A DNA stretch of 64,000 nucleotides from Candidatus Omnitrophota bacterium. Lineage in GTDB: Bacteria; Omnitrophota; Omnitrophia; Omnitrophales; Aquincolibacteriaceae. The notes beneath the pieces are model-generated. The model was not told the DNA's origin and did no database searches. It saw only the letters and a program-made list of their open reading frames with translations. Position 1 is the stretch's first letter. Every line of letters begins with the position of its first letter. Positions 11,249-64,000 of the stretch are shown piece by piece. A program made the position numbers and the translations under genes. The DNA is taken from NCBI GenBank assembly GCA_903884815.1, contig CAISGE010000002.1, positions 45,955-109,954 of the forward strand, written 5' to 3'.

Positions 11249-11374
11249 TGCCAAACGTCAAAAAAGCAGACAAAGGAGTTCTTGCGTAATAGCGCGCGAT
11301 CGCCAGCTCTCGCCATTGGAAAAAGAGAAGGTTTTCGGAAATAAAGTTCTCGATTAAACGAGCGTAAATTTTTA

Positions 11375-11402: not shown

Positions 11403-11465
11403 ACGGCACGGGTAGAAACACAGCCCTTTTGCATTGAGCGCACAATTGTTCGTGTTGCCACGCAT

Positions 11466-11481
11466 TGTTTCACGTGAAACA
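11466..11481. promoter_or_regulatory. parS: parS centromere site, a perfect 16-mer TGTTTCACGTGAAACA, lying between the putative promoter and the parA start.
   Basis: It matches the parS consensus exactly and lies 13 nt upstream of the parA RBS and start. Confidence 0.85.
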
Positions 11482-11493
11482 TATGGAGGCTCT

Positions 11494-12465: not shown

Positions 12466-12500
12466 ACGCGAAACGTTCTATATAAGGAAGGAGCCTTCTC

Positions 12501-19287: not shown

Positions 19288-19328
19288 ACGATCTCTTTTT
19301 TAAAATTATACAAGGAGCTCCCGCACCC

Positions 19329-21785: not shown

Positions 21786-21796
21786 TCGGACAGCGC

Positions 21797-23893: not shown

Positions 23894-24049
23894 GCGCCAC
23901 AAGCGTTTGTGAGAGAAGGGTTTAGGTCTTTGCGTAAGACGGATGGCGGGAAAGTCTTAGGGCAGTCCCAAATTAACTCTTTGAAAAAGCATATCGTGGA
24001 GTTAAAATGAGCGCCGCATGTGGCACTTATATAGCTATGAAATAACAGG

Positions 24050-25303
24050 TTGCGAAAAGAACAAAATTCGAAAGGAGAGGCTCTCATGATCATCAAACAA
24101 ATGCTCAAAGACAGGACGCTGACGGACAAGGAGAGAAAAAATCTCGCCATTCTCGAAGTAGTCCGCAAGAATGGCCCCATCTCCCGCACCGATATTTCCA
24201 AACTCACCGAGCTGAACATCGTCACTGTCTCCAATTATGTGAGCCATTACATCAAAAAAGGCCTCATGATCGAGGGAGAACTGGATGAATCGACGGGCGG
24301 CCGCAAGCCGGTGCTCGTGGAGCTCAACCCCAAGGCGGGCTACATTGTCGGCGTGGGCCTCAACATGATGAGCATGGTCGCGGTCTTAGTGGACCTTGAG
24401 ATCAATGTCATTAGCGAGATCAAGCGCGAGCGGGCTCCGGAAAATTCCGAAACCGTCATCCTCCAGATGGTGGATCTTGCTGCTGAGATCATTGAAAAAG
24501 CCGAGATCGATAAGTCCAAGATCGTCGGCCTCGGGGTCGGTATCCCCGGCATCATCGATGAACGCGGGCGGACGATCCGCTGGCCGCAAAGCCTGGGCGA
24601 CAAGGATATCTCGGTCTGCTCCTCTATTAAGGACACCTTTGAAAAGCGACTCAATATTCCCACGATCGTGGAGAATGACGCGAACGCGGCGGTGCTCGGA
24701 GAGAAATGGCTCGGCCTTGATCGCGATGTACGGAACATGGTGTATATGTTTTCGGGCGTCGGCTGCGGCATTTTAATCAATGAGGAGATCTACCGGGGAG
24801 CGAACGGCGCCGCGGGAGAGCTCGGGATTACGAGCACGCACGCCAGCAAAGACTATTCGTTTAAGATCGCGACGCAACTCGGCCGCTGGGAAATGGATAT
24901 CGGCATGGTCCGTCACGCCAAGGAACGCATCGAAAAAGGGGAGCCTTCGCTCCTCAAAGATCTCGTGAAGGGCGACCTTTCGAAGATCACGTTCCGGGAG
25001 ATCGTCAAGGCCATCAAGGAAAAAGACGCGGTCGCGCTCAAGGTGGCAGATCAAGCCGGGCAAGATCTCGGCAAAAAGATCGCCTTCATCGTGAACCTTC
25101 TCAACCCGGAAGTGGTCGTGATCGGCGGCGGCATTGAGGATTGCGGCGCGGTGCTCCTGGATTCGATCAAGAACACCATCAAGGAATGGTCCGTGGAAGA
25201 AGCCGCGACGCAGGTCAAGATCATTCCGTCCGCTTTCGGCGAAAATGCCGTGGCGCTCGGCGTGGTCGGCATTGTGGCCCGCGAAATCTTCGCGCAGGCT
25301 TAA
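24050..25303 (+). CDS. ROK-family transcriptional regulator (NagC/XylR-like).
   Basis: An N-terminal wHTH (LAILEVVRKNGPISRTDISKLTELNIVTVSNYVSHYIKKGLM) is followed by a ROK sugar-kinase-like fold (GVGLNMMSMVAVLVDL..., IVENDANAAVLGEKWLG, ELGITS). The start is likely the ATG near 24086. Confidence 0.75.
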   Translation: MRKEQNSKGEALMIIKQMLKDRTLTDKERKNLAILEVVRKNGPISRTDISKLTELNIVTVSNYVSHYIKKGLMIEGELDESTGGRKPVLVELNPKAGYIVGVGLNMMSMVAVLVDLEINVISEIKRERAPENSETVILQMVDLAAEIIEKAEIDKSKIVGLGVGIPGIIDERGRTIRWPQSLGDKDISVCSSIKDTFEKRLNIPTIVENDANAAVLGEKWLGLDRDVRNMVYMFSGVGCGILINEEIYRGANGAAGELGITSTHASKDYSFKIATQLGRWEMDIGMVRHAKERIEKGEPSLLKDLVKGDLSKITFREIVKAIKEKDAVALKVADQAGQDLGKKIAFIVNLLNPEVVVIGGGIEDCGAVLLDSIKNTIKEWSVEEAATQVKIIPSAFGENAVALGVVGIVAREIFAQA

Positions 25304-46323: not shown

Positions 46324-47589
46324 ATGGATAAAATTATTATAGAGGGCGGTTTTCGACTTAAGGGCGAGGTGGATGTCTCGGGATCCAAGAACGCCGTCCT
46401 GCCTATTATGGCGGCGGCGCTTCTATCCGAAGAAGAGTCTGTGATCACGAACGTGCCTTCACTTTGGGACGTGCACACGATGGTCAAGATCCTGCGGACG
46501 CTTGGGGCCAAAGCGATCCTTGAGAACGGATGCCTGAAGGTAAAGCCGGGCAAGAATCTTAAGCCGCTCGCCCCTTATAAACTTGTAAAGACCATGCGCG
46601 CGTCGGTGTGCGTGCTCGGGCCGCTTTTGGCGAGACTTGGTGAGGCGGAAGTTTCGCTTCCTGGCGGATGCGCGATCGGGCCGCGGCCGATCGATCTCCA
46701 TCTGAAAGGTCTGGAGGCCCTGAATGCCGAGATCGATATTCAGCATGGCTACGTAAAAATTAAAGCCAAGAAGAAATTACGCGGGTCCGAAATTTATTTG
46801 GGCGGCGCCTATGGCTCTTCGGTGCTGGCAACAGGCAATGTGATGATGGCGGCGACGCTCGCGCACGGAAGGACCGTGATCGAGAACGCGGCCTGCGAGC
46901 CCGAGGTGGTGGACCTCGCAAGATTCCTTAAGAAAATGGGCGCCAAGATCACGGGGGAAGGTTCCCCGAGGCTTGAGATCGAAGGTGTCCGGAAATTGCA
47001 CGGCGCTGAGCATCATGTGATCCCGGACCGTATCGAGGCGGGGACATTCCTTTACGCGGCGGCGATCACGGGCGGGGATATTCTGGTCCGCAAGATGGAC
47101 CCGGGGCATCTCAATGCGGTGATCGACAAGCTCCATCAGGCGGGCGTCCGCGTCGAGAAGTTCAAGAATTCCGTGCGCGTGAGAAAGAACGGGCGTCTCA
47201 AGCCCGTCGACATCACGACGCTGCCGTACCCGGCTTTCCCGACGGACTTGCAGGCGCAGGCGATGGCCCTTGCGACCGTGACGCCGGGGATCAGCATTTT
47301 GACGGAGAAGATCTACCCGAATCGTTTTATGCATGTGCCCGAACTCGGCCGTATGGGCGCGAAGGTGTTCTTGGAAGGGCCGAGCGCCATTGTGCATGGC
47401 GTCAAAAAGTTGAGCGGCGCGCCGGTCATGGCGTCCGATCTCAGGGCCAGCGCGGCGCTTGTGCTCGCGGGCCTGGTCGCGGAAGGCGCGACGGAAGTTC
47501 AGCGCGTGTATCATCTGGACCGGGGTTATGAGAACCTCGAACAAAAACTCACCTCTCTCGGAGCTTCGATCCGCAGAGAAAAGGAATAA
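46324..47589 (+). CDS. murA: UDP-N-acetylglucosamine 1-carboxyvinyltransferase.
   Basis: It begins [34 protein letters not shown], has an active-site Cys region ([15 protein letters not shown]) and is 421 aa. Confidence 0.95.
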
Positions 47590-50125: not shown

Positions 50126-51454
50126 ATGACCCCAAAACTGAATAAATCTATTTGTTTTTTCTGTCTCGGACTTCTTGCCTTTTCTCTTTTCGCATATGCC
50201 GAAGAGAAGAAGGATGATCTTTATGCCCCGACGTACACCCAACCCCTGGCTCCGGAGCCGCTCAAGGGCGCCCTTTCCCGCATTATTGAATTTCCCCTCA
50301 AGTTGGCCAAGTGGCCCATGGACCAGGGGATTCTCTTTAATGACCGGCATCGGGTTGACAAAAAGGCGATCTGGCTTTACGAAGAATCGTTGCGACAAGG
50401 CGTTAAACCTCTCGTTGGATTTTCGGATCTTTCTGCGTTGCCCTACTACGGCGCTGAGTTTAACCTTCTGACGCTTGCCCGCCAGAAAGAACGATACCCG
50501 GATTTTTTTGCCACCACCACGATCCTTCACTGCCCTGCGGTTTTCTTCATGGTTGGGTCGGAGATCGGAGCTCAGCAGATCGGCGGGACCGGGTTTCACG
50601 CCAAAGGTCTTTTTAATTATTCCCGCGATGAAAAAGAGCCTTTTTACGGTATCGGGCCCGACACGAGCCATGGGGACAAATCGTCTTACCGGATGGAAAC
50701 CACCCGGGTAGGCGTTGAGGCTGGCTACGAATTTTCCCCCTCGTTGGATATCACCACCGGATTTGATTACAAGAACGTCAATATCCGCAGCGTGGTTCAT
50801 GACAACACGGCCAGCATTTCCGGCCTCTTTTCCGGCCAAAACATTCCGGGTCTGAGTGGCGACAATCTTCTGGATTATTCCGTGGCTCTCGGACGTGATA
50901 CCCGAGACAGCAAAGACGATGCAACCCAGGGGAGTTACCAGAAACTTCGTTTTGAATTTACCGACGGCGTTAACGGCTCAACGGCTAAGTATTTCAAGTA
51001 CCAGTTGGATATGGCCAAATATTTCCGGCTCTGGTCTCCGCGCCGCGTTTTAGTGGCGCGTCTCTTTGGCGAGCACAATGACGAAGTCGGGGGCGGAAAC
51101 ATTCCTTTTTACAACCTCGCCAAACTGGGAGGCGCGGGGGCTACCAACGCGCGGCAAAGCGAGACCCTGCGCGGCTATGTGTATAACCGCTTTTACGGGG
51201 AAAGTTCCCTGCTGCTTAACTTGGAATACCGGTACACGGTGATGGAATATAAGGAGTTTAAGGTGAAAACCGCTTTGTTTAACGACTTGGGGCAGGTCTT
51301 CGGCGAGATCCATGAGTTTCAGATCAAGGATTTCAGGGAAACCTACGGGGTCGGTTTATATCTTAGCTATTCAAAGAATACGGTCGTGAATTTTTCGGTC
51401 GCCCACAGCAATGACGGTACGCAATTTTATGTCAAAAACAAACTCGCGTTCTAG
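50126..51454 (+). CDS. Outer-membrane beta-barrel protein, Omp85/D15 surface-antigen-like and without POTRA domains.
   Basis: It has a signal peptide (CFFCLGLLAFSLFAYA), an alternating amphipathic beta-strand pattern and ends in an aromatic residue (KNKLAF). The 442 aa length is too short for BamA. Confidence 0.4.
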   Translation: MTPKLNKSICFFCLGLLAFSLFAYAEEKKDDLYAPTYTQPLAPEPLKGALSRIIEFPLKLAKWPMDQGILFNDRHRVDKKAIWLYEESLRQGVKPLVGFSDLSALPYYGAEFNLLTLARQKERYPDFFATTTILHCPAVFFMVGSEIGAQQIGGTGFHAKGLFNYSRDEKEPFYGIGPDTSHGDKSSYRMETTRVGVEAGYEFSPSLDITTGFDYKNVNIRSVVHDNTASISGLFSGQNIPGLSGDNLLDYSVALGRDTRDSKDDATQGSYQKLRFEFTDGVNGSTAKYFKYQLDMAKYFRLWSPRRVLVARLFGEHNDEVGGGNIPFYNLAKLGGAGATNARQSETLRGYVYNRFYGESSLLLNLEYRYTVMEYKEFKVKTALFNDLGQVFGEIHEFQIKDFRETYGVGLYLSYSKNTVVNFSVAHSNDGTQFYVKNKLAF

Positions 51455-51563: not shown

Positions 51564-53159
51564 ATGGCAACCGTTGGAATGTTCGGTCTCTTGATCGCGG
51601 GTTTTAGCGGCACGGTCTGGGCAGCAGAGACGGTCCAGTACAAGACACAGGAAGCCACTCACAACAGCGATTTTTTTGATTCGAATGTCTATAACGAAGG
51701 CGTGAATCAACTCGATTTGGGGCGCTGGGGAAGAAGGATTTCCGGTGCGGCGCTTCCCTCGAAAAATGTAAATATCTTTGATGAGGTGCCGGATTCCGGG
51801 TTTTTCACCAATCGCCAGGGCCGCACGCGCCTTTCCGCCGAGGCTCTTGGAACGGGTTTCCAGGAAACGTCCGGACCCGACCTGAGCAGCCCTCTACAGA
51901 TCATGGCGGCGGAACAGCGGGGGATCTATCCCAGGTTTTGGGCGAAGGACGCGCGAGGAGATGAGTATCTTCTGGAATTCGACCCCCAAGGGAAATTCGA
52001 GCTGGTGACGGGCGCGGAAGTGGTGGCTGCGCGGTTTTATCACGCCCTCGGTTATTTTGTGCCGCAATACACGATCGCGATGATTCCTGCCGATCGGTTT
52101 CAGGCGACTCCTGATGCCACCACCTGGGAAGAAACGGGATTCAAGAAGAAGTTGACGCAGACGCGTCTCGAGGAGTATTTGGCGGTGCTGCCGCAGAACG
52201 AAGCGGGCCTTTACCGGGCCTCCGCGTGCAAGATCCTGAGGGGGGGGTACCACGGCAGCTTTAGTTTTGAGTCCCGCCGAAAAGAGGATCCCACGGATCT
52301 CGTGAATCATCGCGACCACCGTGAGATCCGGACGCTTGGCATTTTTGCAGCGTGGCTCAACCACTACGATCTCAGGGAAAGCGATACTCTGGATATCTCC
52401 GTCGAGGAGAACGGGCAGACCGTGCTCACCCATTATCTGGGCGATTTTAACGGAGCCTTAGGGGCCACGCAGGAAGGCCCGAAAGCGCCGATGCTCGGTT
52501 ACGAGCACGCGATTGATTATGGCGAGACCTTTAAATCAGTTCTGGCTCTCGGGTTCCGCGAGAAGCCCTGGCAGAAAAAGTGGAAACAAGCGGGCGAGCA
52601 GAGCCTCGCGGCTCCGGCCGTGGGTTACTTCACGAATGATCTTTTTGATCCCGCGCGTTATAAAGCCGAGTTTCCCTATGAAGCCTTCCGTCTTGTCACG
52701 CGTGCCGACGGATTCTGGGCCGCAAAACTTCTTTTGAGCTTTTCGGATGAAGACATCAAGACGATGGTGGGCGCCGGAAAATATACCGATCCGGCGGACG
52801 CCGCGACCCTGGCAAAAACGCTGACCGAACGTCGTGACATTATCACCCGCTACTGGCTTTCCCGCGCCAATCCTCTGGACGGATTTTCGTTCTCCGGCGG
52901 GAAACTATCTTTCAAAGACCTTGCGCCCCAGGGCGGTACGGTTTATTCCGTGGAAGTCCTGAAAGAAAATGGAAAAGAAAAGATCACACAGTTTGAAACT
53001 AAGGAATCTGTTTTTGATGTTCCCGCGGGAGAGCTCCCCGCAAACGGCGAGGTCCGGATCCTGATCCGGGTTCTTCGCCCCTCCTCCAAGGCCGCCAGTC
53101 CCGCTGTCACCGTTCGCTTGAACACCGCGGGCATTCAGGGCATTCGCCGCGAAGACTAA
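51564..53159 (+). CDS. Secreted protein of unknown function (about 531 aa).
   Basis: The signal peptide MATVGMFGLLIAGFSGTVWA|AE starts at an internal ATG of track ORF 51411-53159. I recognise no catalytic motifs. Confidence 0.4.
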   Translation: MATVGMFGLLIAGFSGTVWAAETVQYKTQEATHNSDFFDSNVYNEGVNQLDLGRWGRRISGAALPSKNVNIFDEVPDSGFFTNRQGRTRLSAEALGTGFQETSGPDLSSPLQIMAAEQRGIYPRFWAKDARGDEYLLEFDPQGKFELVTGAEVVAARFYHALGYFVPQYTIAMIPADRFQATPDATTWEETGFKKKLTQTRLEEYLAVLPQNEAGLYRASACKILRGGYHGSFSFESRRKEDPTDLVNHRDHREIRTLGIFAAWLNHYDLRESDTLDISVEENGQTVLTHYLGDFNGALGATQEGPKAPMLGYEHAIDYGETFKSVLALGFREKPWQKKWKQAGEQSLAAPAVGYFTNDLFDPARYKAEFPYEAFRLVTRADGFWAAKLLLSFSDEDIKTMVGAGKYTDPADAATLAKTLTERRDIITRYWLSRANPLDGFSFSGGKLSFKDLAPQGGTVYSVEVLKENGKEKITQFETKESVFDVPAGELPANGEVRILIRVLRPSSKAASPAVTVRLNTAGIQGIRRED

Positions 53160-53321
53160 ACGCTCTGCTGAAAAACAGTATGTAGTATGTTGGTAAAAAA
53201 TAAGCCGGCAAGATTGTGTGACATACGGCCGACGATATATAGAGATGCTGTGTCCCCCGCTTTTCTCCGGACGTTCTCGTTGCCTTCGCAAAAAAATGTA
53301 GCCGCCACGATTGCACAAGTG

Positions 53322-53343
53322 CTATCATTTGCGCAATAATGAT
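53322..53343. promoter_or_regulatory. Inverted repeat TATCATT-N8-AATGATA upstream of the HTH-receiver gene. It is a candidate operator.
   Basis: tatcatttgcgcaataatgata has perfect 7 bp arms with an 8 bp spacer. It lies 49 nt upstream of the ATG at 53392 and overlaps TTGCAC/TTGCGC -35-like hexamers. Confidence 0.35.
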
Positions 53344-53391
53344 AAATATGCACTACTAATTAATGCGAAATGTGCAAGAGGGGGGCTGGCC

Positions 53392-53946
53392 ATGGAGGAA
53401 AAACTTCTAAAGGTTTCGGACGTGATGAAGCGTCTGAATGTTTCCCGCCGAACGATCTATTATTGGATCGATGAGGGGATCATCAAGACCATTCGCATCG
53501 GAGGCATGTACCGCTTTCACCCGGAAGATATCGCCCAGCTGATCGAGTCGGGCCGCAGCGCCCCCGCGGTCAAACAAAAAAAGATTCTCGCGGTCGACGA
53601 CGACATCCTCGTTCGGGAGTCCATCAAATTGTTGCTTGGCCGTGAAGGTTATTCGGTGACCGCCGTACCTGACGGAAAATCTGCTGTGATCTTGTCCACC
53701 CAGCAGGATTTCGATTTGACGCTTGCGGACATGAGAATGCCCGACATGAATGGCCTGGAAACTCTCAAGGCGATCCGCAAGGCCCGGAAAGACGAGGGCA
53801 AGGAACTCAAGCCCGAGATCATTATGACAGCCTATGAAGACGGCAAGGCAAAGAAGGAAGCCAAAGCGATCGGCGTGAAGGAATTTGTGATGAAGCCTTT
53901 CGAGCTGGACCACTTTCTGGACCTCGTGAAACAGAATATCGGCTGA
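53392..53946 (+). CDS. Response regulator with an inverted architecture: an N-terminal excisionase/MerR-type HTH fused to a C-terminal CheY-like receiver.
   Basis: The HTH region is LLKVSDVMKRLNVSRRTIYYWIDEGIIKTIRIGGMYRFHPEDIAQL (the HTH_17/excisionase pattern). The receiver has KKILAVDDD and the phospho-acceptor context DLTLADMRMPDMNG. It is 184 aa from the ATG at 53392. Confidence 0.7.
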   Translation: MEEKLLKVSDVMKRLNVSRRTIYYWIDEGIIKTIRIGGMYRFHPEDIAQLIESGRSAPAVKQKKILAVDDDILVRESIKLLLGREGYSVTAVPDGKSAVILSTQQDFDLTLADMRMPDMNGLETLKAIRKARKDEGKELKPEIIMTAYEDGKAKKEAKAIGVKEFVMKPFELDHFLDLVKQNIG

Positions 53947-54552
53947 ATTCTGTACTGAATTAAAACCTCGAAGTCATACCCTCCCCGTTCAATGCGTTTG
54001 TAGCTCCCTCCAGCCCAAGGGCATTCCAACTCGTTTCCCGTGGCGAAGAATGGCAGTTGACTTTTATTGCGCAGAATAATACAATTTGCACAATAGTATC
54101 AATATCAACGCTATAAGGTAATACAGAATGAGCAAAAAGAATAAGTACATTCCCGGACCTGAAAGTGAAAAAATCTCCCACCTCCAATCAACCATTTTCA
54201 GAGCAAAGAATCCGCGGATTGCCGCTCATGGTCTATGGTACTTAGCTTATGGGTCTGTAAGACTTTCTTATATCTTAATAGTCTCTATGGGACATTAATT
54301 TATGTTTTCATATATTAATACAAGCCAATTACTTTTCATAGCTCTCTAGAAATCATAAATGCCATAAATTCTATAACATACTATTTCATATTATATAAAC
54401 GCTATGTATTGCTATGCGCTTAATGTTAGGCATTGCTATATCAAACTAGATTGTCAGCCATTGCGCATGTCTTGCGCGTCAATGAGGGTTTAACCAGGAA
54501 GAGCAGAATTTATCCCTGAAATGAAATTCTAAGATCATCGGGAGACAGAAGC
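53947..54552 (+). promoter_or_regulatory. A 600 bp AT-rich leader upstream of the giant adhesin gene. It contains a strong sigma70-like promoter (TTGACT-N17-TACAAT, 54057-54085) and a possible 56 aa small ORF (54128-54298).
   Basis: GC falls to about 30% over 54230-54480, against about 58% in the flanking genes. The hexamers are TTGACT at 54057-54062 and TACAAT at 54080-54085. Repeated attgctat motifs are present. The small ORF reads MSKKNKYIPGPESEKISHLQSTIFRAKNPRIAAHGLWYLAYGSVRLSYILIVSMGH* and has a weak RBS. Confidence 0.4.
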
Positions 54553-57500
54553 ATGAAAAACACAATCGTAAATCGCGGGACTGCAGCGGCGCTTTGTTTT
54601 CTGATGTGTTTTATTTCGATACCGGTGATGCCGGCGCATGCGATGGTTACACAAAAACCTTTGGTTTTTGGTACCTCCTCGAAAGGATCCCAGCAGTCTG
54701 GGGTGCCCGCGGATAAGGTCGATACGACGGCGAAACAAGAGGTGCCGGTCGAGCCGAATGCCGGCTTCATGAACCCTTCGGCAATAAGAGCCGCGACAGT
54801 AAACACGCCGTCGACAACGATGACACCTTCTATCGACACTCAGAAGCCTTCGGTGCCGACGGGACTTGCGGTCTCGAATGTGACGGCGACGGGCGTGAAG
54901 CTTAGCTGGAATGCCGTGACGGATAATGCCGGAGGTTCCGGTGTGACGGGTTACGATATCTACAAGGATTCGGCCCTTTTCGCGACGGTGGCCGGGAATG
55001 TTACGACCTACACGGTGACGGGGCTTACGGAGGGTACTGCTTATACCTTCACGATCAAGGCCAAGGACGCGGCGAATAATGTCTCGGATGCAAGCGATCC
55101 GCTTTCAGTCACGCCGTCGTCGGTCAATCAGCCGCCGGTGGCGACAGCGCCCACCGTGAATCCTTTTAATGAGGATACGCCGCAAGCCATCACGCTCGGC
55201 GGCACGGACCCGGATCATAATCCGCTCACGTATGTCATCGTCACCAGACCGGCGCACGGGTCGCTGGTGCATGATCCCGCATTCCCGAACGATCCCTCCA
55301 AGTTCCTTTACACGCCCGTTGCGGACTACAACGGGACTGATTCGTTCACGTATAAAGTGAACGACGGCACCGCCACATATACGGCGACCGACACAACCGC
55401 AACCTCCGCCGCCGCGACGGTTTCACTGACCATCAACGCGGTTAACGACGCGCCGGTGGCGACGACGACGCGGGTGGTGAATATCCTCCAAAATACGGCC
55501 CGCACCGTCACTCTCGGGGCATTGAACGTCGATAAGGACACGCTTTCCTACACGATCCTGACGCGGCCGGCGAAGGGGACATTGTCGTGCACGGGAGCGG
55601 CGTGCACTTATACGCCAGCGGCGAATGACTTTGGGACGTATTCTTTCTCGTACAAGGTAAGTGACGGGACGCTGGATTCACAGCCAGCGATCGTGACCTT
55701 TGAGGTCGTCAAGCCCGCCGCGGCGCCGGTCATGATGGCGGCCCAAACGGGGACGACGGGGGAAAGCCTTTCGTTCACGGTCCCGAATGCCGCGGCATAC
55801 ACGTTTGACGCGTTTGACGGGGAATCGCTTCCGGCGGGCGCGCATTACGACGCCGCAAACGGTCAATTCACCTGGACGCCGACCTACAACCAGGCGGGAG
55901 TTCACGTGTTGCAGTTCGTCAAGGACCAGCAGACTTATCAGACGCTCCTGGCCGTCAGCTACGTTCCTCCGATCGGGATCTCCAATCCGGAGTTTGGGAT
56001 CATGGAGACTTACCGGATGTATGATGACATCGCGAAGCGGAATACGGCACTCACCTACTATCGGAACGACGAAGGCGGCTTTTACACGCATTATATCGAC
56101 AACGGAGCCGGGTGCTCCGACTCCGGCAACTCCGCCGGGACCGCGGCCAGTCCGCGGTGCACCATCCCGTCCGAACTTCCCGCCGGCGCTGTCATCGAGC
56201 TTCATGGCGGACCGTATACGAATATCACAAGTTGGCAAAACGCCGTAAACGGAGCGGGAACGCAAGATAAACCCATCTTTATTCGAGGGAATGGCGTGAG
56301 AATTGATGCGAGACTGAGTATCTACACGAGGCCCACGGAGGAGAACAGTTATGTGATCGCGGAAGGACTCAATGCGTATGCTGTCAACATAGGCGCACCG
56401 AGCAACCATGTCGTACTGAGAAACTCAGATGTTCACGGGGATGCGAGCGGCGGCGGTGTTTCTTTGCAAAGGCCGACGGAAAGCACCAAGGCCAATCCCA
56501 ACAATGCTATATCCAATGTCACCCTCTACAACAACACGATCCACGATAACGGAATCTGGCAACCGGAACTTGCCGAGGGAGATCGGGATATTCACGGACT
56601 GGTCATCGGTTGGTTTAGTCTCGTAGACCATGTCTGGGTGCTGGATAACGATATCTATCACAACGAAGGCGATTCGATTCAGGTCAATGCGGGGCCGCAC
56701 GTGACGCCGTCCAACGTCAACAACATCTACATCGGACGCAACGAAATGCATGACGATAAACAGAGCGCTTTGGGTGTCAAGAGCGCGAAGGATGTTATTA
56801 TTTCTGAAAATGACATGTATGGAATCCGTGTAAGCAGTTCGGCGTCGGGCGATTGTACGGGTAATTCGGATGACGGACCGGAATCTGTCTGGTGGCTTTA
56901 CAACAAAATTCATGATGGAGCCTTAGGCTTCAAGTTCTCCGGCAGCGCTGTCGGAACCTACGGAATGATCGGGAACCTGATCTACGATATCCATGGCGCC
57001 GGGGGACCGCTCTCGGGCGATTATTCTCAATCCGGCCAAGCGATGACGGATTGGCATGGCAATATCATCAAGTACATCGTGAACAATACCATCTATGATA
57101 CGGATTACGGTTATTCGGTGTGGCAGGGCGGACGTCCCAACAATGAGTCGTTTACCCTTGTCAATAATATCGGCGTCACGACACTGACCGGTTATGCAGC
57201 CTCCAGCATACTTCATTCCGATGCCATCAACCTCTCGGACAATATCACGGGAAGCAGCGCCCTTTTCGCCAATGTTCCCGCGTTCTCGACGCGTCTCGAT
57301 GATTTTCAATTTACGGCCACGGCCGGTCAAATGCGTTCGGCGGAGGGCGGCACGAAGACCATGCTGACGGTCCCAGGCGCGGATTTTACCGCGTTGGGCG
57401 TCAAAGCGGGAGACCGTCTCGACCTGGGGGCGGCGAGGACAGATCAAAACGGGAAAAAGATTATGAATCCCGCCGTCTCTGTTTATTCATCCACGTGGAT

Positions 57501-60500
57501 GTACATCGAAAGCGTGAACGGAGATACGATCACCTTAAAAGATAATGTCTGGCTTTGGGATTCGAACGCGGTGAAGTTCTCGATCTATTATTATCCCTAT
57601 CCGAAGGTGAACACGAACGAACTGTATCTCGACGATGTTTCGAAGTTCAGCGTGGGAGACGTTATCGAATACAACCATGACGGCGTTGCCAGGAGAGTGG
57701 TCAGCGTCGATACCAATGTCATTTCGGATTCCATCGGACCCAAAGGCCGGATCGTGTTGGACAGTCCTGTGCCTAAGCTCATCTCGCAGGCTTCGATCAC
57801 CAACTGGGGGCCGAAGACTGACAACAATCTTGTGTGGGACCTGAGTCTGAAGGCCGGCTCCGCGGCCATCGGAAAAGCCGAGTCCCTTCAGACGATCACG
57901 GCCATGGATCACTCGGGGAATCCGGTCCTGGATGGGGCAGGCAAGCCCGTCTCGCTTGCCGCCTATTTTAATACATTATACGGGATACAGCTCCCGGCGA
58001 ACCCGGACCTCGGGGGGTCTGACTACACGGACGCGGGCGTGCCGGCTGTTTCTTATTATGTCGGGAATGATTACACAGCCGACTCGACCCATTTCACAAC
58101 CGTACAGGCTGCTCAGAGCCGGATCGCGGCGGATATCGCGGCGCATGCGGGTGATCCTTCCTGGATACAGCCTGCCTACACGGTGCTGATCAAAGCGGGC
58201 GTGTATCAAAACGTGGCGGGAAACTGCTCAGGCGCCACTTGTAATCTTGTCAATGTGACAGTTTCAGGGACCGCGAGCGCGCCGATCACTTTTAAACCCT
58301 TGGGAGACGGGCCCGTTGTTTTCCGCGGATTTGGATTTGAAGATCGTGATCTGAACGGTGACGGAATGGCGGATGGCCCGGCCGATCCTAACAAACGCGA
58401 AACGCTCATGCGGATCAGCGGCAATTACATCCATGTCGAAGGTCTTGAGTTCACGAACTCCCAGCAGGGGGGACTCGTCATCGAGGGGAGCTTCAACCGA
58501 ATCGAGAACGTCAGCTCCCATGATAATTGGACCATCGGGATCAGCATCGGAGATGCCGGCAACCGCCGCGTTGAGGGGAATGTCGTCACCGGCTGTGAAG
58601 CCTACAACAACCGTCATTACGTGGGCATTGCGATCAACTTCGCGCAGCAGACGAATTGGAATCCGGACTGGCTTGTGACGAAAAACATCATTGAGAACTC
58701 ACTTTCTTACAGGAACGGTTACCTGCCCGACGGAACCAAAGTGCTGCCTATCGGCGGTGATCCGCAAGGGGGAGGGAATTCGGACGGGATCATGGCCACC
58801 AAGTTCTGCGCTTCAGGGAAGACTCAGAACGCGTGCCCGGATAATATTTTCCGCGGGAATATCGTCTGGTCGAACGCCGATGACGGTATTGACGTGAGCT
58901 TCTCCGACTCGCTGATCGAGAACAACATCTCTTTTGATAATGGGCCGTCGGGCAGCATGGGATTTAAAGTGTTCTTCGAAAATGTAAAGAACAGCTTTGT
59001 CGGGAACATCGCCTACGCGAACGATGGAAATGGTTTTGACTTGCGCAGCACGACAACCGGCATCTTTCTCAATAATCTGGCTTTGAATAACGGCGCGTGG
59101 GGATTTTCGGGGGGTAACTTCGAAACCAATCACAATAACATGGCGTACGGGAGCGTTCTTAACGCGGACATGTCGATCCCGGCCGCCTGCGCGAATTCGA
59201 CTTGCTCGAATAACTGGAACGGCAAGGGCAGCGGGCCCTTGAGCGGCGACCCCAAGTTGGCGAACACGACGCTCTTCAAAGGCTCGAACGGACAGATCGT
59301 GTTCAGTCTGCCGGCGGGAACGATAGACCAAAAAGTGGCCTGGCTCAAGGGTCAGTTTGCGACCGCTTTCAGTTTGCAATCTGGAAGTGGGGCGATCAAC
59401 GCCGGGGTCGCGGCCTCCTATACGGACCCGATCACGGGGGAGACGCTCTCCAGAACGGTACTAGGAAGCGCGCCTGAAATAGGGGCTTATGAATACACGG
59501 ACGGTACGACGCCTCCGCCCGACCAGACGGTTCCCGTGATCAGCGCCGTTCTTTCAAGCAGTGTGACGGTGAACGGGGCGGTGATCAGCTGGACGACCAA
59601 TGAGGCTAGTGATTCCCAGTTGCAGTATCGCGTGCAAGGGACCACGACCTGGTCGAACACGACCCTCAACACGTCACTTGTGACGAGCCACTCCGTGACG
59701 CTCAGTGGGCTGAACGCACGCACGGTGTATGAATATCAGGTGAAGTCCAAGGACCAAGCCGGGAATCTTGCCACTCAGGCAACGATTTCCAATTTCACGA
59801 CGCTGACTCCGCCGCCAACCGGCGCGATCCCGTTGAGTGGCGGACGGACCGCGGATTATGTGTCGGCCGCGGATTCCTCCATTCTGAACAAACTTACGGT
59901 CTATGATGCACAAGGCGTCGTGCAGGCGGTGAGTTATATCCCGAGAGCTTATGTGGATCTGGACCACGATGAGGTTACAGTGGTAAGCGGTCAGGTGAGG
60001 ATCACGCGGCACTACAAGAACCGGACGACGGTGGATGTGTTCGATCAATTCGGGGTTCTTTTGACGCTCGATTCCCAGGGGAATATCCAGAGCGGCAAGA
60101 TCGTGAACTCTGTTTCCGCGACGATCTCCGGGGTTCAGCAGACGCGTTACTCAACGGTCGCGACGGTGAATTATCAGAATCAGCTTCCCGTCTCGGTTGT
60201 GAAAGCCGCAACGGACAGCGTCACGGTCGCCTATGCCCCCGGGACTTCGAACGTGACAGGTTACACTTATAAGAACGCTGCCGGAGCGATCCTGGCGGAG
60301 GCCGTGCCCGTGGCCGGCGGTCTCTTCCGGGTGAATGCTCCGGCGCTTGGCATTGTTCTGGAGCAGGTGAAGATCCAAAGTGCTGCGGACGCGTACCGGT
60401 TGATGGCGAAACTGGCGAGCACCATGAAGCGCCTGGCGGATTACAAAACGGAGCTTGTGCAGGCCTACGGGTTTCTTTACGGAACCGCGACCGCAACTGA

Positions 60501-63500
60501 GATGGGGAATCAGATCCTGCTTCCCACGACGGTGAGCAGTCTTGTGACGACCCCTGATGACCTGAATCTCTCGCTCACGGGCGCCGTCGGCAGTACCTAT
60601 GCGCTCAATTACTGCACCATGAACGATCTGAACACCACGACTTCCGCCTGCAGTGAAATGAAAGTGACGCCTCCGAGCGGGGCGCTCATCGGGGTCTCAC
60701 TGACCTTTGACATCCAGCGGCGTTTGATCACACAGGTTTTTGCGAACGGAAATGTCCGCACCTTTCATTATAATGCGCAAGGCGTCTACGATGCATACAG
60801 TGAGACGGATACGGCCGGCAACGGCACGACCTACGTTCAAAACGGTGTTTTTGCTCCGGGAGGGCGGGTGCTAGGGGAGGTCGTGAACGGCGAAAATGTG
60901 TTTTATGTGGGTTTCGCGGACAAAGGCTTCGCGGCGGACAAGATCCAGGCTGCGATCGATCTCGCCCCGGCGGGCGCCGTGATCCTGCTCGCGGTCGGAA
61001 CTTACGTGAACGGTTTTAATCTGAACGCGGGAACTAAAGAGCTGACGATCCGTGGGGACGGGGCCGTGGTGATCGACGGGAGCACGGGCGCCGAACGTTT
61101 CGCGAGCGTTTTAAGCGGTGGGCAATTACATCTCGAACACCTGACGTTCCGGCATTTCAACATCCATCCTTACGCGAGCGGCACCTCGGTTAATCCCGCC
61201 GGGAAGGGCATCCTCTACGTGGGAGAGGGCTCCCGGCTGACGGTGGACGGCGTAACTTTCGAGAACGATCAAATGTCGGCCGCCGGCGGCCTGATCTACG
61301 CGGTCGGAGGTTTGACCGCGGCGAAATTAGCCGACGTGACAATTACAAATTCGACCTTCCAAAATAACACCCTGATCTCCGCGGCAGGGGCGGCAATGCC
61401 GGCCTCGACGATCACGAATACTGAAGTTGTCGGCGGGAAGAATATGTTCACATTTACGACCGTTGCGGGATGCACCTACGATATTCAGAATTCCACGGAC
61501 CTGGTTCATTGGACGACGATCACCGGACCGGTCACGGCGACGGGCGATCTGTCCGTCGCGACTGCGGCCACTACGACACCGAGCGGCTTTTTCAGGGTCC
61601 GGACGCTGACGGGGCAAGGCGGCGGGTCGAATGCCGCGGTCCAGGCCTTTCAAGCGAATGTCCACATCTCGGGTTCTCTTTTTGAGAACAATCAGGTCGG
61701 GGCAGGCGCCGGGGCGGTGTCGATGAGCGGGCTCCAGGGCGGTTTCAACGGAGTGATCGAGAACACGGTTTTCCGGAACAACAGCGCGACGTCCCAATAC
61801 GGAGCCGGCGGCGTGATGGCCCTGAGCGGAAATATCACGATTGCCGGCTGTGACTTTATTGGAAATACTGCCACCGAGGGCTACGGCGGCGCGATCCGTC
61901 TCGGGGGAGCGCAGGCGACGCTGGACCACAATCTGTTCGTCGGGAACAAGGCTCTCTATGGCGGCGCGATCCAGACCACGTCAGCCGGTTCTTCATTCTC
62001 TTCGGGCTCTTTTTACGCGCCGGAAACCCGGGAAGTTCACATCAGTTTTTCGACTGTCGCGGACAATGTCTCCCTCGCGGGCGGAGGCGTCATTGATTCA
62101 AGGGATTGGATCAATCCGGTGAACGGGCAGCGCATGACCGTCGCCAAGAGTATTTTTTCCGATGCCGGGCAGTCGGATATCACCGGAGATCCTCAGGCCA
62201 CGCTAACGATCACGGATGCGTTGAGGACCGGAACGGACCCGCTCTTTATAGATGCCGCGAACGGCGATTACAGGATCCGCCCGAATTCCCCCGCCCAATC
62301 GCAGGTCAATAATAGCGCCGTGGCCTGGGGGAGCGAAGGGTTTGGGCCCGCGATCCAGTATTTGCTTGCGCCGGTCGATCCAGCTTCGATCCCGGTTCTT
62401 ACGAACCAGACCTCGCTTTCGATCTCGTTCCAGCTGAGACCGGTGTCTGCGATCAATCAGCTGACGCTAAAACAGGTGACGTCAAACGCCGCTCCTTTCA
62501 CCTTCACGATCTCGGTCTCGCTGCTCCACGAAGGTTTGAATTCGGGTCTCAAGGCCGTCCTGGACAATGAATACGGCCATTTTGAATACGTGCTTCCCGA
62601 CATCATCCGGGACACGACCCCGCCGGTGCTAGCGGTGTTACCGCCTTCGAATGCAACGCAGAGCGCGGTCACGATCAACTGGACGACGACCAATGAAGCC
62701 AGCGATTCTCAGGTTCAGTATCGCGTGCAGGGGCAGGGGACCACGGCTTGGTCGAACACGACCCTCAACACGTCACTTGTGACAAGCCATTCGGTGACGT
62801 TTAGCGGGCTGAGCGCGAACACGGTGTACGAATATCAGGTGAAGTCCAAGGACCAAGCCGGGAACCTCGCCACTCAGACGACGATTTCAAACTTCACGAC
62901 GCCGGCTCCTCCCGAAACTCCGGCTGTTTCGATCATCGCGCAACACAATTACGAGAATGTTCCAGAGAGAGGCACCGTCGGCGGAGGGATTTGCATTATA
63001 GCGGACGTGACGAAAATTGCGGGCGTTATTACTTCGGTTGATTTTTATATGGACGGAGTCTTGGGGTGGACCCAGAATGTGAATTTCTATTGGCCGTTCT
63101 ATAGCGAAGGTAAGCCGAACGGTACGCATATTTTCACCGCGAAAGCCAAGGATAAAGACGGTAATATTATCTCCACGTCCTTACCCATCACCATTAATAT
63201 TCAAAATGCTCCGGACAAAACTCCGCCGACATTCACGTTCGCCTCCGAGCTTGCAAATAATCCCATCATAACGGGGAGGACCTATGTTTATGGTACAGGC
63301 AGAGATCCACTGGTAGAAGGAGCCACCACGTCGGGGTTTGCCGGCATTCAATATAGGGTTGAGAACTCGCACGGGGAAGTGACGTTCCTCGGAGACGAGA
63401 CCGTAGCCCCTGCTTATTGTGCTCTCTTGGATCCCGCATCTGATCCCGCTCATTTGGCCAACGGTGATTACACGCTGTTCGCCGTTGCCCGCGACGCGGC

Positions 63501-64000
63501 CAACAACACATACGAAACTAGTGTTCCCATTACGATCAATTATACCGGGCCTATTGTTCCCCCGGATCCGCCGGCGATCAGCGCCCAGCCCGTGGGAGGA
63601 AGCGTTGCGCTAGGCGACAGTCTGACTTTAACGGTGGTTGCGAGCGTTCCTGCCGGCTCCACGCTTTTGTTTCAGTGGCAGAAAGACGGGGCAAATGTAG
63701 GCGAGCCGACGATGGGCGATGCGACGAGCAGTAGCAGTTACACGATCTCCAGCGCGGCCCCTGCGGATGCCGGGAGGTACCGTTGCATCATCAAGCGAAT
63801 GAACGGCACGGAGCTCAGCGAAGTAACAAGCAGCGAAGCCCTTGTGTCCATTCCCGATCATGAGGCGCCGCGGAAGCCGACGTGGCTGGATTTGTCGCCG
63901 ATCTCCAATCCGATCTCCAATCTAACGAGTACTTCGGTGACGCTCTCGTGGAACGCGACGACGGACAATATCGGAGTGACGGGCTATCAAATCTTCAAGA
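54553..64000 (+). CDS. Giant secreted multidomain surface protein or adhesin (more than 3149 aa, running beyond the window). It combines FN3, cadherin-like, right-handed parallel beta-helix and Chlamydia-PMP-like repeats with Ig-like domains.
   Basis: An ATG at 54553 follows a gggaga RBS. The signal peptide is MKNTIVNRGTAAALCFLMCFISIPVMPAHA. I translated the whole frame by hand and found no stop up to 64000. FN3-like segments include LAVSNVTATGVKLSWNAVTDN...GYDIYKD and repeated VISWTTNEASDSQLQYRV...YEYQVKSKDQAGN units. Cadherin-like VNDAP repeats are present. Many NxxxN/NNI beta-helix turns occur. PMP-type motifs include GYGGAIRLGG...FVGNKALYGGAIQ and FENNQVGAGAGAV...FRNNSA. A possible CarboxypepD-reg/Ig region lies at the end. 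Confidence 0.75.
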   Translation, partial: MKNTIVNRGTAAALCFLMCFISIPVMPAHAMVTQKPLVFGTSSKGSQQSGVPADKVDTTAKQEVPVEPNAGFMNPSAIRAATVNTPSTTMTPSIDTQKPSVPTGLAVSNVTATGVKLSWNAVTDNAGGSGVTGYDIYKDSALFATVAGNVTTYTVTGLTEGTAYTFTIKAKDAANNVSDASDPLSVTPSSVNQPPVATAPTVNPFNEDTPQAITLGGTDPDHNPLTYVIVTRPAHGSLVHDPAFPNDPSKFLYTPVADYNGTDSFTYKVNDGTATYTATDTTATSAAATVSLTINAVNDAPVATTTRVVNILQNTARTVTLGALNVDKDTLSYTILTRPAKGTLSCTGAACTYTPAANDFGTYSFSYKVSDGTLDSQPAIVTFEVVKPAAAPVMMAAQTGTTGESLSFTVPNAAAYTFDAFDGESLPAGAHYDAANGQFTWTPTYNQAGVHVLQFVKDQQTYQTLLAVSYVPPIGISNPEFGIMETYRMYDDIAKRNTALTYYRNDEGGFYTHYIDNGAGCSDSGNSAGTAASPRCTIPSELPAGAVIELHGGPYTNITSWQNAVNGAGTQDKPIFIRGNGVRIDARLSIYTRPTEENSYVIAEGLNAYAVNIGAPSNHVVLRNSDVHGDASGGGVSLQRPTESTKANPNNAISNVTLYNNTIHDNGIWQPELAEGDRDIHGLVIGWFSLVDHVWVLDNDIYHNEGDSIQVNAGPHVTPSNVNNIYIGRNEMHDDKQSALGVKSAKDVIISENDMYGIRVSSSASGDCTGNSDDGPESVWWLYNKIHDGALGFKFSGSAVGTYGMIGNLIYDIHGAGGPLSGDYSQSGQAMTDWHGNIIKYIVNNTIYDTDYGYSVWQGGRPNNESFTLVNNIGVTTLTGYAASSILHSDAINLSDNITGSSALFANVPAFSTRLDDFQFTATAGQMRSAEGGTKTMLTVPGADFTALGVKAGDRLDLGAARTDQNGKKIMNPAVSVYSSTWMYIESVNGDTITLKDNVWLWDSNAVKFSIYYYPYPKVNTNELYLDDVSKFSVGDVIEYNHDGVARRVVSVDTNVISDSIGPKGRIVLDSPVPKLISQASITNWGPKTDNNLVWDLSLKAGSAAIGKAESLQTITAMDHSGNPVLDGAGKPVSLAAYFNTLYGIQLPANPDLGGSDYTDAGVPAVSYYVGNDYTADSTHFTTVQAAQSRIAADIAAHAGDPSWIQPAYTVLIKAGVYQNVAGNCSGATCNLVNVTVSGTASAPITFKPLGDGPVVFRGFGFEDRDLNGDGMADGPADPNKRETLMRISGNYIHVEGLEFTNSQQGGLVIEGSFNRIENVSSHDNWTIGISIGDAGNRRVEGNVVTGCEAYNNRHYVGIAINFAQQTNWNPDWLVTKNIIENSLSYRNGYLPDGTKVLPIGGDPQGGGNSDGIMATKFCASGKTQNACPDNIFRGNIVWSNADDGIDVSFSDSLIENNISFDNGPSGSMGFKVFFENVKNSFVGNIAYANDGNGFDLRSTTTGIFLNNLALNNGAWGFSGGNFETNHNNMAYGSVLNADMSIPAACANSTCSNNWNGKGSGPLSGDPKLANTTLFKGSNGQIVFSLPAGTIDQKVAWLKGQFATAFSLQSGSGAINAGVAASYTDPITGETLSRTVLGSAPEIGAYEYTDGTTPPPDQTVPVISAVLSSSVTVNGAVISWTTNEASDSQLQYRVQGTTTWSNTTLNTSLVTSHSVTLSGLNARTVYEYQVKSKDQAGNLATQATISNFTTLTPPPTGAIPLSGGRTADYVSAADSSILNKLTVYDAQGVVQAVSYIPRAYVDLDHDEVTVVSGQVRITRHYKNRTTVDVFDQFGVLLTLDSQGNIQSGKIVNSVSATISGVQQTRYSTVATVNYQNQLPVSVVKAATDSVTVAYAPGTSNVTGYTYKNAAGAILAEAVPVAGGLFRVNAPALGIVLEQVKIQSAADAYRLMAKLASTMKRLADYKTELVQAYGFLYGTATATEMGNQILLPTTVSSLVTTPDDLNLSLTGAVGSTYALNYCTMNDLNTTTSACSEMKVTPPSGALIGVSLTFDIQRRLITQVFANGNVRTFHYNAQGVYDAYSETDTAGNGTTYVQNGVFAPGGRVLGEVVNGENVFYVGFADKGFAADKIQAAIDLAPAGAVILLAVGTYVNGFNLNAGTKELTIRGDGAVVIDGSTGAERFASVLSGGQLHLEHLTFRHFNIHPYASGTSVNPAGKGILYVGEGSRLTVDGVTFENDQMSAAGGLIYAVGGLTAAKLADVTITNSTFQNNTLISAAGAAMPASTITNTEVVGGKNMFTFTTVAGCTYDIQNSTDLVHWTTITGPVTATGDLSVATAATTTPSGFFRVRTLTGQGGGSNAAVQAFQANVHISGSLFENNQVGAGAGAVSMSGLQGGFNGVIENTVFRNNSATSQYGAGGVMALSGNITIAGCDFIGNTATEGYGGAIRLGGAQATLDHNLFVGNKALYGGAIQTTSAGSSFSSGSFYAPETREVHISFSTVADNVSLAGGGVIDSRDWINPVNGQRMTVAKSIFSDAGQSDITGDPQATLTITDALRTGTDPLFIDAANGDYRIRPNSPAQSQVNNSAVAWGSEGFGPAIQYLLAPVDPASIPVLTNQTSLSISFQLRPVSAINQLTLKQVTSNAAPFTFTISVSLLHEGLNSGLKAVLDNEYGHFEYVLPDIIRDTTPPVLAVLPPSNATQSAVTINWTTTNEASDSQVQYRVQGQGTTAWSNTTLNTSLVTSHSVTFSGLSANTVYEYQVKSKDQAGNLATQTTISNFTTPAPPETPAVSIIAQHNYENVPERGTVGGGICIIADVTKIAGVITSVDFYMDGVLGWTQNVNFYWPFYSEGKPNGTHIFTAKAKDKDGNIISTSLPITINIQNAPDKTPPTFTFASELANNPIITGRTYVYGTGRDPLVEGATTSGFAGIQYRVENSHGEVTFLGDETVAPAYCALLDPASDPAHLANGDYTLFAVARDAANNTYETSVPITINYTGPIVPPDPPAISAQPVGGSVALGDSLTLTVVASVPAGSTLLFQWQKDGANVGEPTMGDATSSSSYTISSAAPADAGRYRCIIKRMNGTELSEVTSSEALVSIPDHEAPRKPTWLDLSPISNPISNLTSTSVTLSWNATTDNIGVTGYQIFK
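59578..59820 (+). repeat. Intragenic direct repeat, copy 1 (an FN3-like unit inside the giant adhesin).
   Basis: It is nearly identical at the nucleotide level to 62668-62910 (for example tggtcgaacacgaccctcaacacgtcacttgtgac...gaatatcaggtgaagtccaaggaccaagccgggaa). Confidence 0.8.
62668..62910 (+). repeat. Intragenic direct repeat, copy 2 (an FN3-like unit inside the giant adhesin).
   Basis: It shares about 90% identity or more with copy 1, which lies 3.09 kb upstream in the same reading frame. Confidence 0.8.

Follow-up and report, generated by a model that had tools for sequence, protein, structure and literature searches.

We studied a large gene at the right end of a 64,000-nucleotide (nt) stretch of contig CAISGE010000002.1 from a Candidatus Omnitrophota bacterium; this whole stretch is referred to as the window in the following. 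The gene starts at position 54553 on the forward (+) strand and encodes a protein of 4,193 amino acids (aa). We consider this product to be, rather probably, a Sec-exported multi-modular carbohydrate-active protein, i.e., one that binds a polysaccharide, depolymerises or remodels it, and deacetylates it. From the N-terminus on, its modules are read as a block of fibronectin type III (FN3), cadherin-like and immunoglobulin (Ig) domains, three different beta-helix modules, FN3/Ig spacers and a C-terminal SGNH (GDSL) esterase domain. An earlier note on this DNA had described the gene as encoding a giant surface adhesin. Its open reading frame (ORF) and most of its modules were confirmed, while its polymorphic membrane protein (PMP), orphan regulator and riboswitch labels found no support.

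Open reading frame and full-length gene

The ATG at 54553 (+) opens a frame of 3,149 sense codons with zero stops up to the window end; the remaining two forward frames are interrupted by 141 and 113 stops in this interval. A Shine-Dalgarno-like GGGAG (54540-54544, +), read directly from the sequence, is located 8 nt 5' of the ATG. Position 53947 is the first base past the stop codon of the adjoining regulator gene and not the start of the ORF.

An exact-match look-up with the adjoining regulator located the locus in many public assemblies, and all public copies compared (L001-L004, L043, L046) are identical or 1 nt apart. Five copies, assembled independently from ENA and JGI metagenomes, differ from the window by 0-1 nt over 15-20 kilobases (kb). 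The gene product called in the public copies comprises 4,193 aa. That is, positions 54553-64000 (+) hold the first 3,149 codons of a 4,193-codon gene, within which the window end falls, and the claim of a single uninterrupted ORF that runs past the window is correct. A stop codon, which independent sequence data might have revealed, is not found in them. As every one of these near-identical copies yields the 4,193-aa product, it is very unlikely that the frame results from errors in sequencing or assembly. The complete gene is located at L046:4387-16968 (12.6 kb). The full-length protein P0115, obtained from a 50%-representative search, shows a single residue change (F867L) compared to the window translation. 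When aa 2850-3149 were compared with metagenome and genome collections, just distant Ig-domain matches were found, mainly from Verrucomicrobiota. No intrinsic terminator was found 3' of the gene.

C-terminal SGNH esterase domain

Past the window end, the protein closes with an SGNH esterase domain (aa 3777-4193, L046:15715-16965) that includes …DMTWVFAGDSIT…. Numbered from DMTWVFAGDSIT, which begins at aa 3798, the candidate nucleophile is Ser3807, i.e., the Ser of FAGDSIT. The domain itself has no Pfam match at E ≤ 1 (Lipase_GDSL and Lipase_GDSL_2 included); four of its homologues (P0265-P0268) carry the Lipase_GDSL models PF13472/PF00657. The SGNH blocks are invariant with these four homologues, namely F27-G29-D30-S31 (block I), G64 (block II), N94 (block III) and H187 (block V) in domain numbering.

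In an alignment profile search, the blocks align with the GNS…N…H of the PDB structure 7br2, which is matched over its full length with an E-value of 8e-46. Axe2-type acetyl-xylan esterases follow with 1e-8 to 1e-10. We also modelled the domain with AlphaFold2 (AF2; predicted local distance difference test (pLDDT) 73, predicted template modelling score (pTM) 0.76). The model again matches 7br2 (i.e., BT4096) over the full length (E-value 1e-17, template modelling (TM) score 0.66, about 456 columns), and TesA, EstA and Axe2 are found with E-values of about 1e-3, in agreement with an alpha/beta/alpha SGNH fold of the domain. Profile and fold searches firmly place the C-terminal domain with 7br2.

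As a side observation, the stand-alone esterase homologue P0267 ends in a PEP-CTERM-like tail (PEPATISLLGLGGLLLVRRRK); the large protein has no such tail. Genes for the exosortases EpsH/EpsI are found on L054, near a paralogue of the regulator discussed below.

Beta-helix modules

The Pfam model Beta_helix (PF13229) scores 58.2 bits on the whole protein (gathering threshold 25.9) and covers four stretches. Scored by segment, modules B (38.1 bits) and C (28.6 bits) are above the threshold and module A (20.6 bits) is below.

Module A (aa ~472-1170; 55966-58062, +) consists of a core helix (aa 480-880), a low-confidence insert of ~180 aa and a cap. We found 88 homologues, mostly stand-alone 'right-handed parallel beta-helix' proteins of 500-1000 aa, with a top identity of 62%. 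In this family, one Lys is invariant and an Arg and an Asp are almost so; the protein studied here keeps all three. The AF2 model, based on an alignment of 52 homologues, has a pLDDT > 90 over module residues 1-400, which form all-beta coils. Its Foldseek neighbours are the pectate lyase Pel9A, PL6 mannuronate/alginate/chondroitin lyases, the AlgE4/AlgE6 epimerases and phage tailspike depolymerases, with a Foldseek probability of 1.00 for Pel9A, PL6, AlgE4 and the tailspikes. Further PDB neighbours are GH136 lacto-N-biosidases and the Vibrio RbmB lyase, and the adhesin PfbA is found at rank 38. As judged from the predicted model, the top structural neighbours of module A are all polysaccharide-active enzymes.

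Module B (aa ~1171-1651; 58063-59505, +) is matched by NosD in addition to Beta_helix and ends in a cap (…EIGAYEY) that resembles choice-of-anchor Q. The respective NCBIfam model choice_anch_Q is sub-threshold (23.8 vs. a cutoff of 25). Compared with the PDB, module B shows a weak local sequence match to Pel9A (1ru4; E-value 0.0017, 68 residues). With regard to membership in polysaccharide lyase family 9 (PL9), the likeness to Pel9A consists of this weak 68-residue sequence match of module B and a fold match of module A at 13% identity.

Module C (aa ~2126-2620; 60928-62412, +) is the part that had been read as PMP-like and ends in a DPLFIDAANGDYRIRPNSPA cap. Its middle holds a beta-sandwich-like insert of ~65 aa (aa 2286-2352; 61408-61608), which ends in …PSGFFRVRTL and presumably recalls the small beta-sandwich modules common in surface proteins of Verrucomicrobiota and Planctomycetota.

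Fusion link and proposed function

The closest homologues of the esterase domain and of module A are found side by side in another organism. At L044:8491-11662, the esterase homologue P0266 (475 aa, 36% identity) adjoins the co-oriented module-A homologue P0001 (553 aa, 62% identity). Since the two are adjacent genes there and fused here, we argue that beta-helix and esterase share a substrate. An AraC-type regulator and arg genes adjoin this pair, in which the two modules occur unfused. A mosaic similar to that of the whole protein is found in P0118 (4,053 aa, likewise from the representative search), which combines five malectins and many FN3 domains with an apiosidase-like domain and a GDSL esterase, such that the architectural kind is not unique.

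Given the domains, the SGNH residues and the fusion link, we infer what the protein may catalyse, on which substrate and where it ends up. After export, the Ig, FN3 and cadherin-like modules would attach the catalytic modules to a polysaccharide surface and set the distance between them. This surface could belong to a host or prey cell (envelope or capsule) or consist of environmental exopolysaccharide. There, the esterase would strip O-acetyl (or similar acyl) groups, and the beta-helix modules would cleave or remodel the backbone.

Signal peptide, spacer domains and unassigned regions

A Sec signal peptide, as claimed before, is recognised by eye and by a hydropathy scan. It spans aa 1-30 (54553-54642, +; MKNTIVNRGTAAALCFLMCFISIPVMPAHA/M), with the cleavage site AHA/M placed by eye, and the N-terminal segment is the sole strongly hydrophobic stretch of the protein. 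Pfam matches above threshold were obtained for fn3, Cadherin_5/Big_9 (twice), He_PIG, Ig_3 and Beta_helix, which agrees with the mosaic proposed in the earlier note, where FN3 and cadherin-like domains are combined with pectate-lyase-like beta-helices.

The N-terminal binding/spacer block (54844-55938, +) comprises an FN3 domain (aa 98-190), two cadherin-like/Big_9 domains (aa 191-386), also labelled 'tandem-95', and a He_PIG Ig domain (aa 396-462). An FN3 domain of the purple-acid-phosphatase-N type follows module B (aa 1665-1760; 59545-59832, +) and has a second copy at aa 2699-2792. On the DNA level, the FN3 copies at 59470-59650 and 62570-62750 (L046:9468-9647 and 12567-12746), which are 3.1 kb apart, are 87-88% identical, and the remaining FN3 copies show 62-78% identity. 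At the level of sequence identity, this pair suggests that an intragenic duplication or gene conversion took place fairly recently.

Between this FN3 domain and module C lies a region of ~365 aa without family assignment (aa 1761-2125; 59833-60927, +). It contains YD/RHS-like hairpin motifs (…LTVYDAQG…, …VRTFHYNAQGVYDAYSETD…). Its best Pfam match is RHS_repeat with an E-value of 0.11, and a PDB sequence search gave no match. Giant Omnitrophota proteins with tubes of RHS-like antiparallel beta-helices have been described (West-Roberts et al., 10.1101/2023.11.21.568195).

The C-terminal FN3/Ig array starts in the window (aa 2692-3149; 62626-63999, +) and runs on to aa ~3781. Overall, aa 2692-3781 hold about 12 FN3/Ig/Big domains. 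Neither a sorting signal nor an internal transmembrane (TM) helix was found in the full 4,193 aa.

Weighing of alternative explanations

Some observations weigh against a carbohydrate-active enzyme. Block V of the esterase domain reads TPDH, i.e., the Asp is found at position H-1, while all four homologues show DxxH. SGNH enzymes with a Ser-His dyad exist, and the displaced Asp would weaken but not exclude the predicted esterase activity. The TM-scores of module A are low (0.25-0.37), because the model is confident in part only, and beta-helix folds also occur in pure adhesins such as PfbA from the fold search. Furthermore, no type II (T2SS) or type IX secretion system (T9SS), two-partner secretion (TPS) or sorting signal was found that would provide an outer-membrane route or anchor. 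The protein could instead be a non-catalytic surface adhesin, whose beta-helices, FN3, Ig and cadherin-like modules merely bind a host or prey surface. Its many Ig/FN3/cadherin-like modules fit such a role, beta-helix adhesins exist (with PfbA among the fold matches), and adhesion is a role frequently considered for large Omnitrophota ORFs (PMC10066038). On the other hand, the SGNH residues Ser, Gly, Asn and His are retained in the C-terminal domain, which is related over its full length to a characterised esterase, the best fold neighbours of module A are enzymes, and the module A family consists mostly of small stand-alone proteins beside esterases, which is an un-adhesin-like context. We consider a purely adhesive function unlikely. 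The earlier note is right about a large Sec-targeted mosaic, but its label of a probable major surface adhesin is by itself too narrow given the C-terminal esterase and the lyase-like helices; we prefer 'adhesive multi-enzyme'.

Two further explanations relate to secretion and ancestry. TPS substrates (TpsA) are large beta-helix proteins, and a gene of the Omp85 superfamily (50126-51454) is located on the same strand 3 kb upstream, through which a TPS-like substrate could be exported. We rejected this candidate and regard it as very improbable. The N-terminus has no TPS/Haemagg_act domain, the Omp85 protein matches generic Omp85/BamA models (PF01103) and not ShlB/FhaC, the block around its gene (trmD-rplS-rnhB-…) is a conserved housekeeping one, and the regulator-plus-large-gene pairs of relatives have no adjoining Omp85 gene. 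Nor does the window show a T2SS beside the large gene, an arrangement that is reported for the giant genes of Omnitrophota; the window holds just a PilT-like ATPase 16 kb away.

The remaining possibility, homology to the Chlamydia-type PMPs (type V autotransporters), is next to negligible. It was prompted by GGAI/FxxN-like turns in module C, where Chlam_PMP (PF02415) gives a faint signal of 11.3 bits (E-value 0.47), compared to a gathering threshold of 20.6. PF02415 does not match the whole protein at E ≤ 0.01, and the NCBIfam POMP repeat (TIGR01376) is not matched at E ≤ 0.1. Just two GGA[ILV] tetrapeptides occur in 4,193 aa and about five FxxN in module C, such that the repeats claimed as PMP-type do not hold up. 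The PMP middle domain (ChlamPMP_M, PF07548) and the autotransporter beta-barrel (PF03797) are absent from both aa 1-3149 and the last 1,044 aa at E ≤ 1. The C-terminus, where the earlier note proposed to look for a sorting signal or a beta-barrel, has neither and is formed by the esterase domain instead. We rejected the PMP/autotransporter assignment on these grounds; the turns that looked PMP-like are the generic Gly-rich pattern of many parallel beta-helices.

Regulator and promoter box

Directly upstream, a 184-aa response regulator is encoded at 53392-53946 (+; Response_reg 85.6 bits, HTH_17 52.6 bits). Its domain order is reversed, i.e., a MerR/excisionase-type helix-turn-helix (HTH) domain, HTH_17, comes first and the receiver domain (REC, PF00072) last. 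The receiver retains the acidic pair (VDDD), the phospho-acceptor Asp (LADMRMP), the Thr of MTAY and the Lys of MKPF. The family comprises 56 homologues of about 184 aa with 49-74% identity, and every named one is from Omnitrophota. In a literature search, no characterised HTH_17 response-regulator relative was found.

The promoter region of the regulator (53290-53391, +) shows TTGCACAA at 53311-53318 and a -10-like TATCAT that is followed by the palindrome TTGCGCAA at 53329-53336, the palindromic box seen near the regulator before. TTGCACA is found on the minus strand at 53371-53377. This layout, TTGACT/TTGAAT-17-(T/C)AxxAT followed by TTGCGCAA, is kept in the window and on L047, with variants on L049 and L055; the -10 of these relatives (L047, L049, L055) reads CATCAT/CATTAT, followed by TTGCGCAA or a near variant.

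The same layout is found at the large gene. A promoter-like TTGACT-17-TACAAT (54057-54085, +) is located 468 nt 5' of the ATG, where a near-consensus sigma70 promoter had been placed some 470 nt from the start codon. Here, the spacer contains TTGCGCA (54067-54073), and the -10 is followed at once by TTGCACAA (54086-54093), i.e., the arrangement is TTGACT-17-TACAAT-TTGCACAA, and the -10 with TTGCRCAA is common to both promoters. Within 53311-54467 we find 8/20 of the window's TTGCRCA matches. The 10-mer ATTTGCRCAA occurs at two places in the 64 kb, which are the promoters of the regulator and of the large gene, compared to an expectation of 0.35.

TTGACT-17-TACAAT is the best of five promoter-like sites, compared to 3.0 ± 1.7 sites in shuffles. 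From this arrangement we infer that 54057-54085, where transcription probably starts, would be a true promoter and belong to one class with that of the regulator, and that the palindrome would act as the operator of the regulator at both. Against these assignments, the 10-mer count alone is weak, since two copies are reached by 7/100 shuffles, and promoter rules are not established for Omnitrophota. In the simplest model, the phosphorylated regulator would bind the TTGCRCAA boxes at both promoters.

Its input could come from a PAS kinase/cyclic di-GMP (c-di-GMP) cluster that flanks the large gene. Just past the gene, on the minus strand and convergent to it (L046:17213-21719), are encoded a 760-aa kinase (PAS-PAS-HisKA-HATPase), a 563-aa REC-GGDEF-EAL c-di-GMP protein and a single-domain REC protein. 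With these three genes that close, the regulator can no longer be called an 'orphan'.

Large proteins beside relatives of the regulator

We examined six further regulator contexts (L047/48, L050/51, L052/53, L054, L049 and L055), with the regions L047:10001-16118, L050:10001-14543, L052:10001-14809 and L054:23-6048. On L047/48 (74% identity), a 1,837-aa signal-peptide protein is encoded 49 nt downstream of the regulator homologue, and on L050/51 (52%) a protein of at least 1,325 aa follows after 7 nt. On L052/53 (71%), a second paralogue is followed by a protein of at least 1,158 aa, and on L054 (64%) a 1,625-aa protein is found upstream. The homologues on L049 and L055 (65-67%) have no large neighbour. 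The large neighbours are mutually unrelated, unrelated to the protein studied here and show few Pfam domains; the upstream neighbours differ among the contexts.

The picture suggests that the regulator is conserved while the adjoining slot for a large protein varies. Tentatively, and with less than even confidence, the Omnitrophota-specific HTH_17-REC proteins could be dedicated switches for a swappable large-surface-protein cassette, whose adjoining proteins of 1,100-4,200 aa are replaced between lineages. The cassette in the window would then have gained its own copy of the regulator-type promoter.

Other features of these contexts were observed as well. On L047, a REC-PAS-GGDEF-EAL gene is located 2.5 kb downstream of the large gene. 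The gaps after the regulators of L049 (10650-10900) and L055 (5250-5500) are 79% identical to each other and seem to hold an uncalled small Cys-rich ORF (…CPSKFQCLRDGCCQGCE…CNCPTRCEIYRKYGK). Their sequence is unrelated to the leader in the window and not AT-rich.

AT-rich leader

Regulator and large gene are separated by an AT-rich non-coding spacer or leader of 606 nt (53947-54552, +), identical across all public copies. Its GC content is 38% compared to about 54% for the locus, with troughs of 27% (per 200 nt) and 21% (per 100 nt, at 54294). This agrees with the description of a non-coding stretch of ~600 base pairs that drops to about 30% GC.

A structured 5' untranslated region (UTR) with room for a riboswitch, or a small ORF, had been suggested for it. 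About 460 nt between the promoter-like site and the ATG would indeed offer space for a cis-regulatory RNA or a functional leader peptide that controls the large gene. In addition, a c-di-GMP signalling protein is encoded nearby, and a 56-codon ORF (54128-54298, +) starts 36 nt past the predicted transcription start with AAGG ~9 nt upstream. However, no Rfam family (Rfam 15) reaches its gathering score in the whole window, and for 53100-54700 just four implausible sub-threshold matches, i.e., matches at chance level, are found at E ≤ 10. The minimum free energy (MFE) of the 469-nt putative leader is -90.4 kcal/mol vs. -93.0 ± 5.2 for shuffles (z +0.5), such that no extra stability is present. 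The GC content at third codon positions (GC3) of the small ORF is 0.386, compared to 0.61-0.71 in the neighbouring genes. Finally, the large genes of relatives start just 7-49 nt after the regulator.

As a result, we rejected a riboswitch or small RNA in the leader, with no Rfam family and a fold no better than that of shuffles, and consider control by such an RNA or a leader peptide improbable. The small ORF, which has no Pfam match and is uncalled in the public assemblies, was likewise rejected on codon composition and absence from all gene calls and is, judging by composition, probably not a gene. Most likely, the ~460 nt from promoter to ATG are an unstructured leader (5' UTR) or an AT-rich regulatory spacer, not a riboswitch.

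Organism and genomic surroundings

The window is chromosomal, with dnaA, gyrB, yidC, mnmG and parAB at its left end. The neighbourhood of the origin of replication (gyrB, dnaA, yidC, mnmG, parA, parB) spans 798-13448; therefore, the large gene lies ~50 kb from the likely oriC. For MurA (46324-47589), the named members of the 90%-identity cluster are all proteins of 'Candidatus Omnitrophota bacterium' metagenome-assembled genomes. Together with the homologues of the regulator, this supports the previous guess of a lineage like the Planctomycetota-Verrucomicrobiota-Chlamydiota (PVC) group or Omnitrophota.

A 531-aa protein with a signal-peptide-like N-terminus is encoded at 51564-53159, between the Omp85-family gene and the regulator. 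It has no match in Pfam or NCBIfam, and its 90% cluster has four members. Oligosaccharides freed by extracellular enzymes may be used by a carbohydrate-uptake/phosphorolysis cluster at 17992-25303, which encodes a solute-binding protein, a ROK kinase, a glucoamylase-like protein and a GH94 protein (cellobiose/chitobiose-phosphorylase type).

Significance and comparison with known systems

Omnitrophota are uncultured, mostly ultra-small bacteria for which a life attached to other cells, possibly one of predation or parasitism, is assumed. The prime candidates for contact with the host and breakdown of envelopes are their large extracellular proteins, most of which show almost no recognisable domains. 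The 4,193-aa protein is unusually legible, with three lyase-like beta-helices and a recognisable esterase that can be expressed separately, and provides a practical entry point to the polysaccharide attacked by such organisms. The association of regulator and promoter box is a testable handle on the switching of these genes. The recurrent pairing of an HTH_17-REC regulator and promoter box with unrelated large secreted proteins is a modestly new by-product of our study. If the idea of a swappable cassette were true, it would mean phylum-specific control of host- or prey-contact proteins via two-component/c-di-GMP signalling.

The closest characterised relative of the esterase domain by profile and fold is BT4096 (7br2), a GDSL/SGNH esterase from Bacteroides thetaiotaomicron that deacetylates diltiazem. 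The match covers the full length, i.e., the SGNH domain and an extension of ~220 aa (beta-sandwich/helical), and the Ser/Gly/Asn/His blocks are kept. In contrast, the identity is ~20%, and BT4096 is a stand-alone enzyme of 450 aa compared to a C-terminal module of a giant protein with a displaced triad Asp. SGNH acetyl-xylan esterases (Axe2, 7ddy) are more distant relatives.

With beta-helix lyases and depolymerases (Pel9A 1ru4, PL6, AlgE, tailspikes), module A shares the right-handed core, these being its best structural neighbours, and Pel9A is the sole sequence-level PDB match for module B. They differ in sequence, with an identity of 9-17%, and the likeness is one of fold. Like multi-modular secreted carbohydrate-active enzymes, the protein links enzyme modules by FN3/Ig spacers, while three unrelated beta-helix modules and an esterase in one chain of 4,193 aa are unusually large compared to the known ones. 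The parallel beta-helix turns with GGAI/FxxN-like motifs known from chlamydial Pmp proteins are here confined to one module, where the repeat is sub-threshold, and neither the middle domain nor the autotransporter barrel accompanies them. The regulator shares with other HTH_17-output response regulators the HTH_17 DNA-binding domain and a receiver with all phospho-transfer residues. It differs in that the HTH comes first and that the family is essentially confined to Omnitrophota, often beside large secreted proteins.

Finally, large Omnitrophota ORFs have been proposed to serve attachment as well as polysaccharide or cell-wall degradation (10.1101/2023.11.21.568195; PMC10066038), which the protein fits. 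It shares with the giant ORFs of this phylum (West-Roberts 2023, 10.1101/2023.11.21.568195; Seymour 2023, PMC10066038; Nielsen & Lui 2026, 10.64898/2026.06.07.730766) that it is very long, poorly conserved and extracellular and shows domains for adhesion and carbohydrate degradation. Its 12.6-kb gene is much shorter than their thresholds of >20 kb or >10,000 aa. The giants of the Archaeovorin/dockerin type (West-Roberts 2023) exceed 10,000-30,000 aa and have many TM helices and a divergent SecA-DEAD domain or dockerins; in the 4,193 aa, no Pfam match to SecA or dockerin is found, and the hydrophobic segment at the N-terminus is the single one. The PMP and riboswitch ideas, which were the source of an exotic look, do not hold. 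That is, the large protein is of an ordinary kind for Omnitrophota and not a new kind of system.

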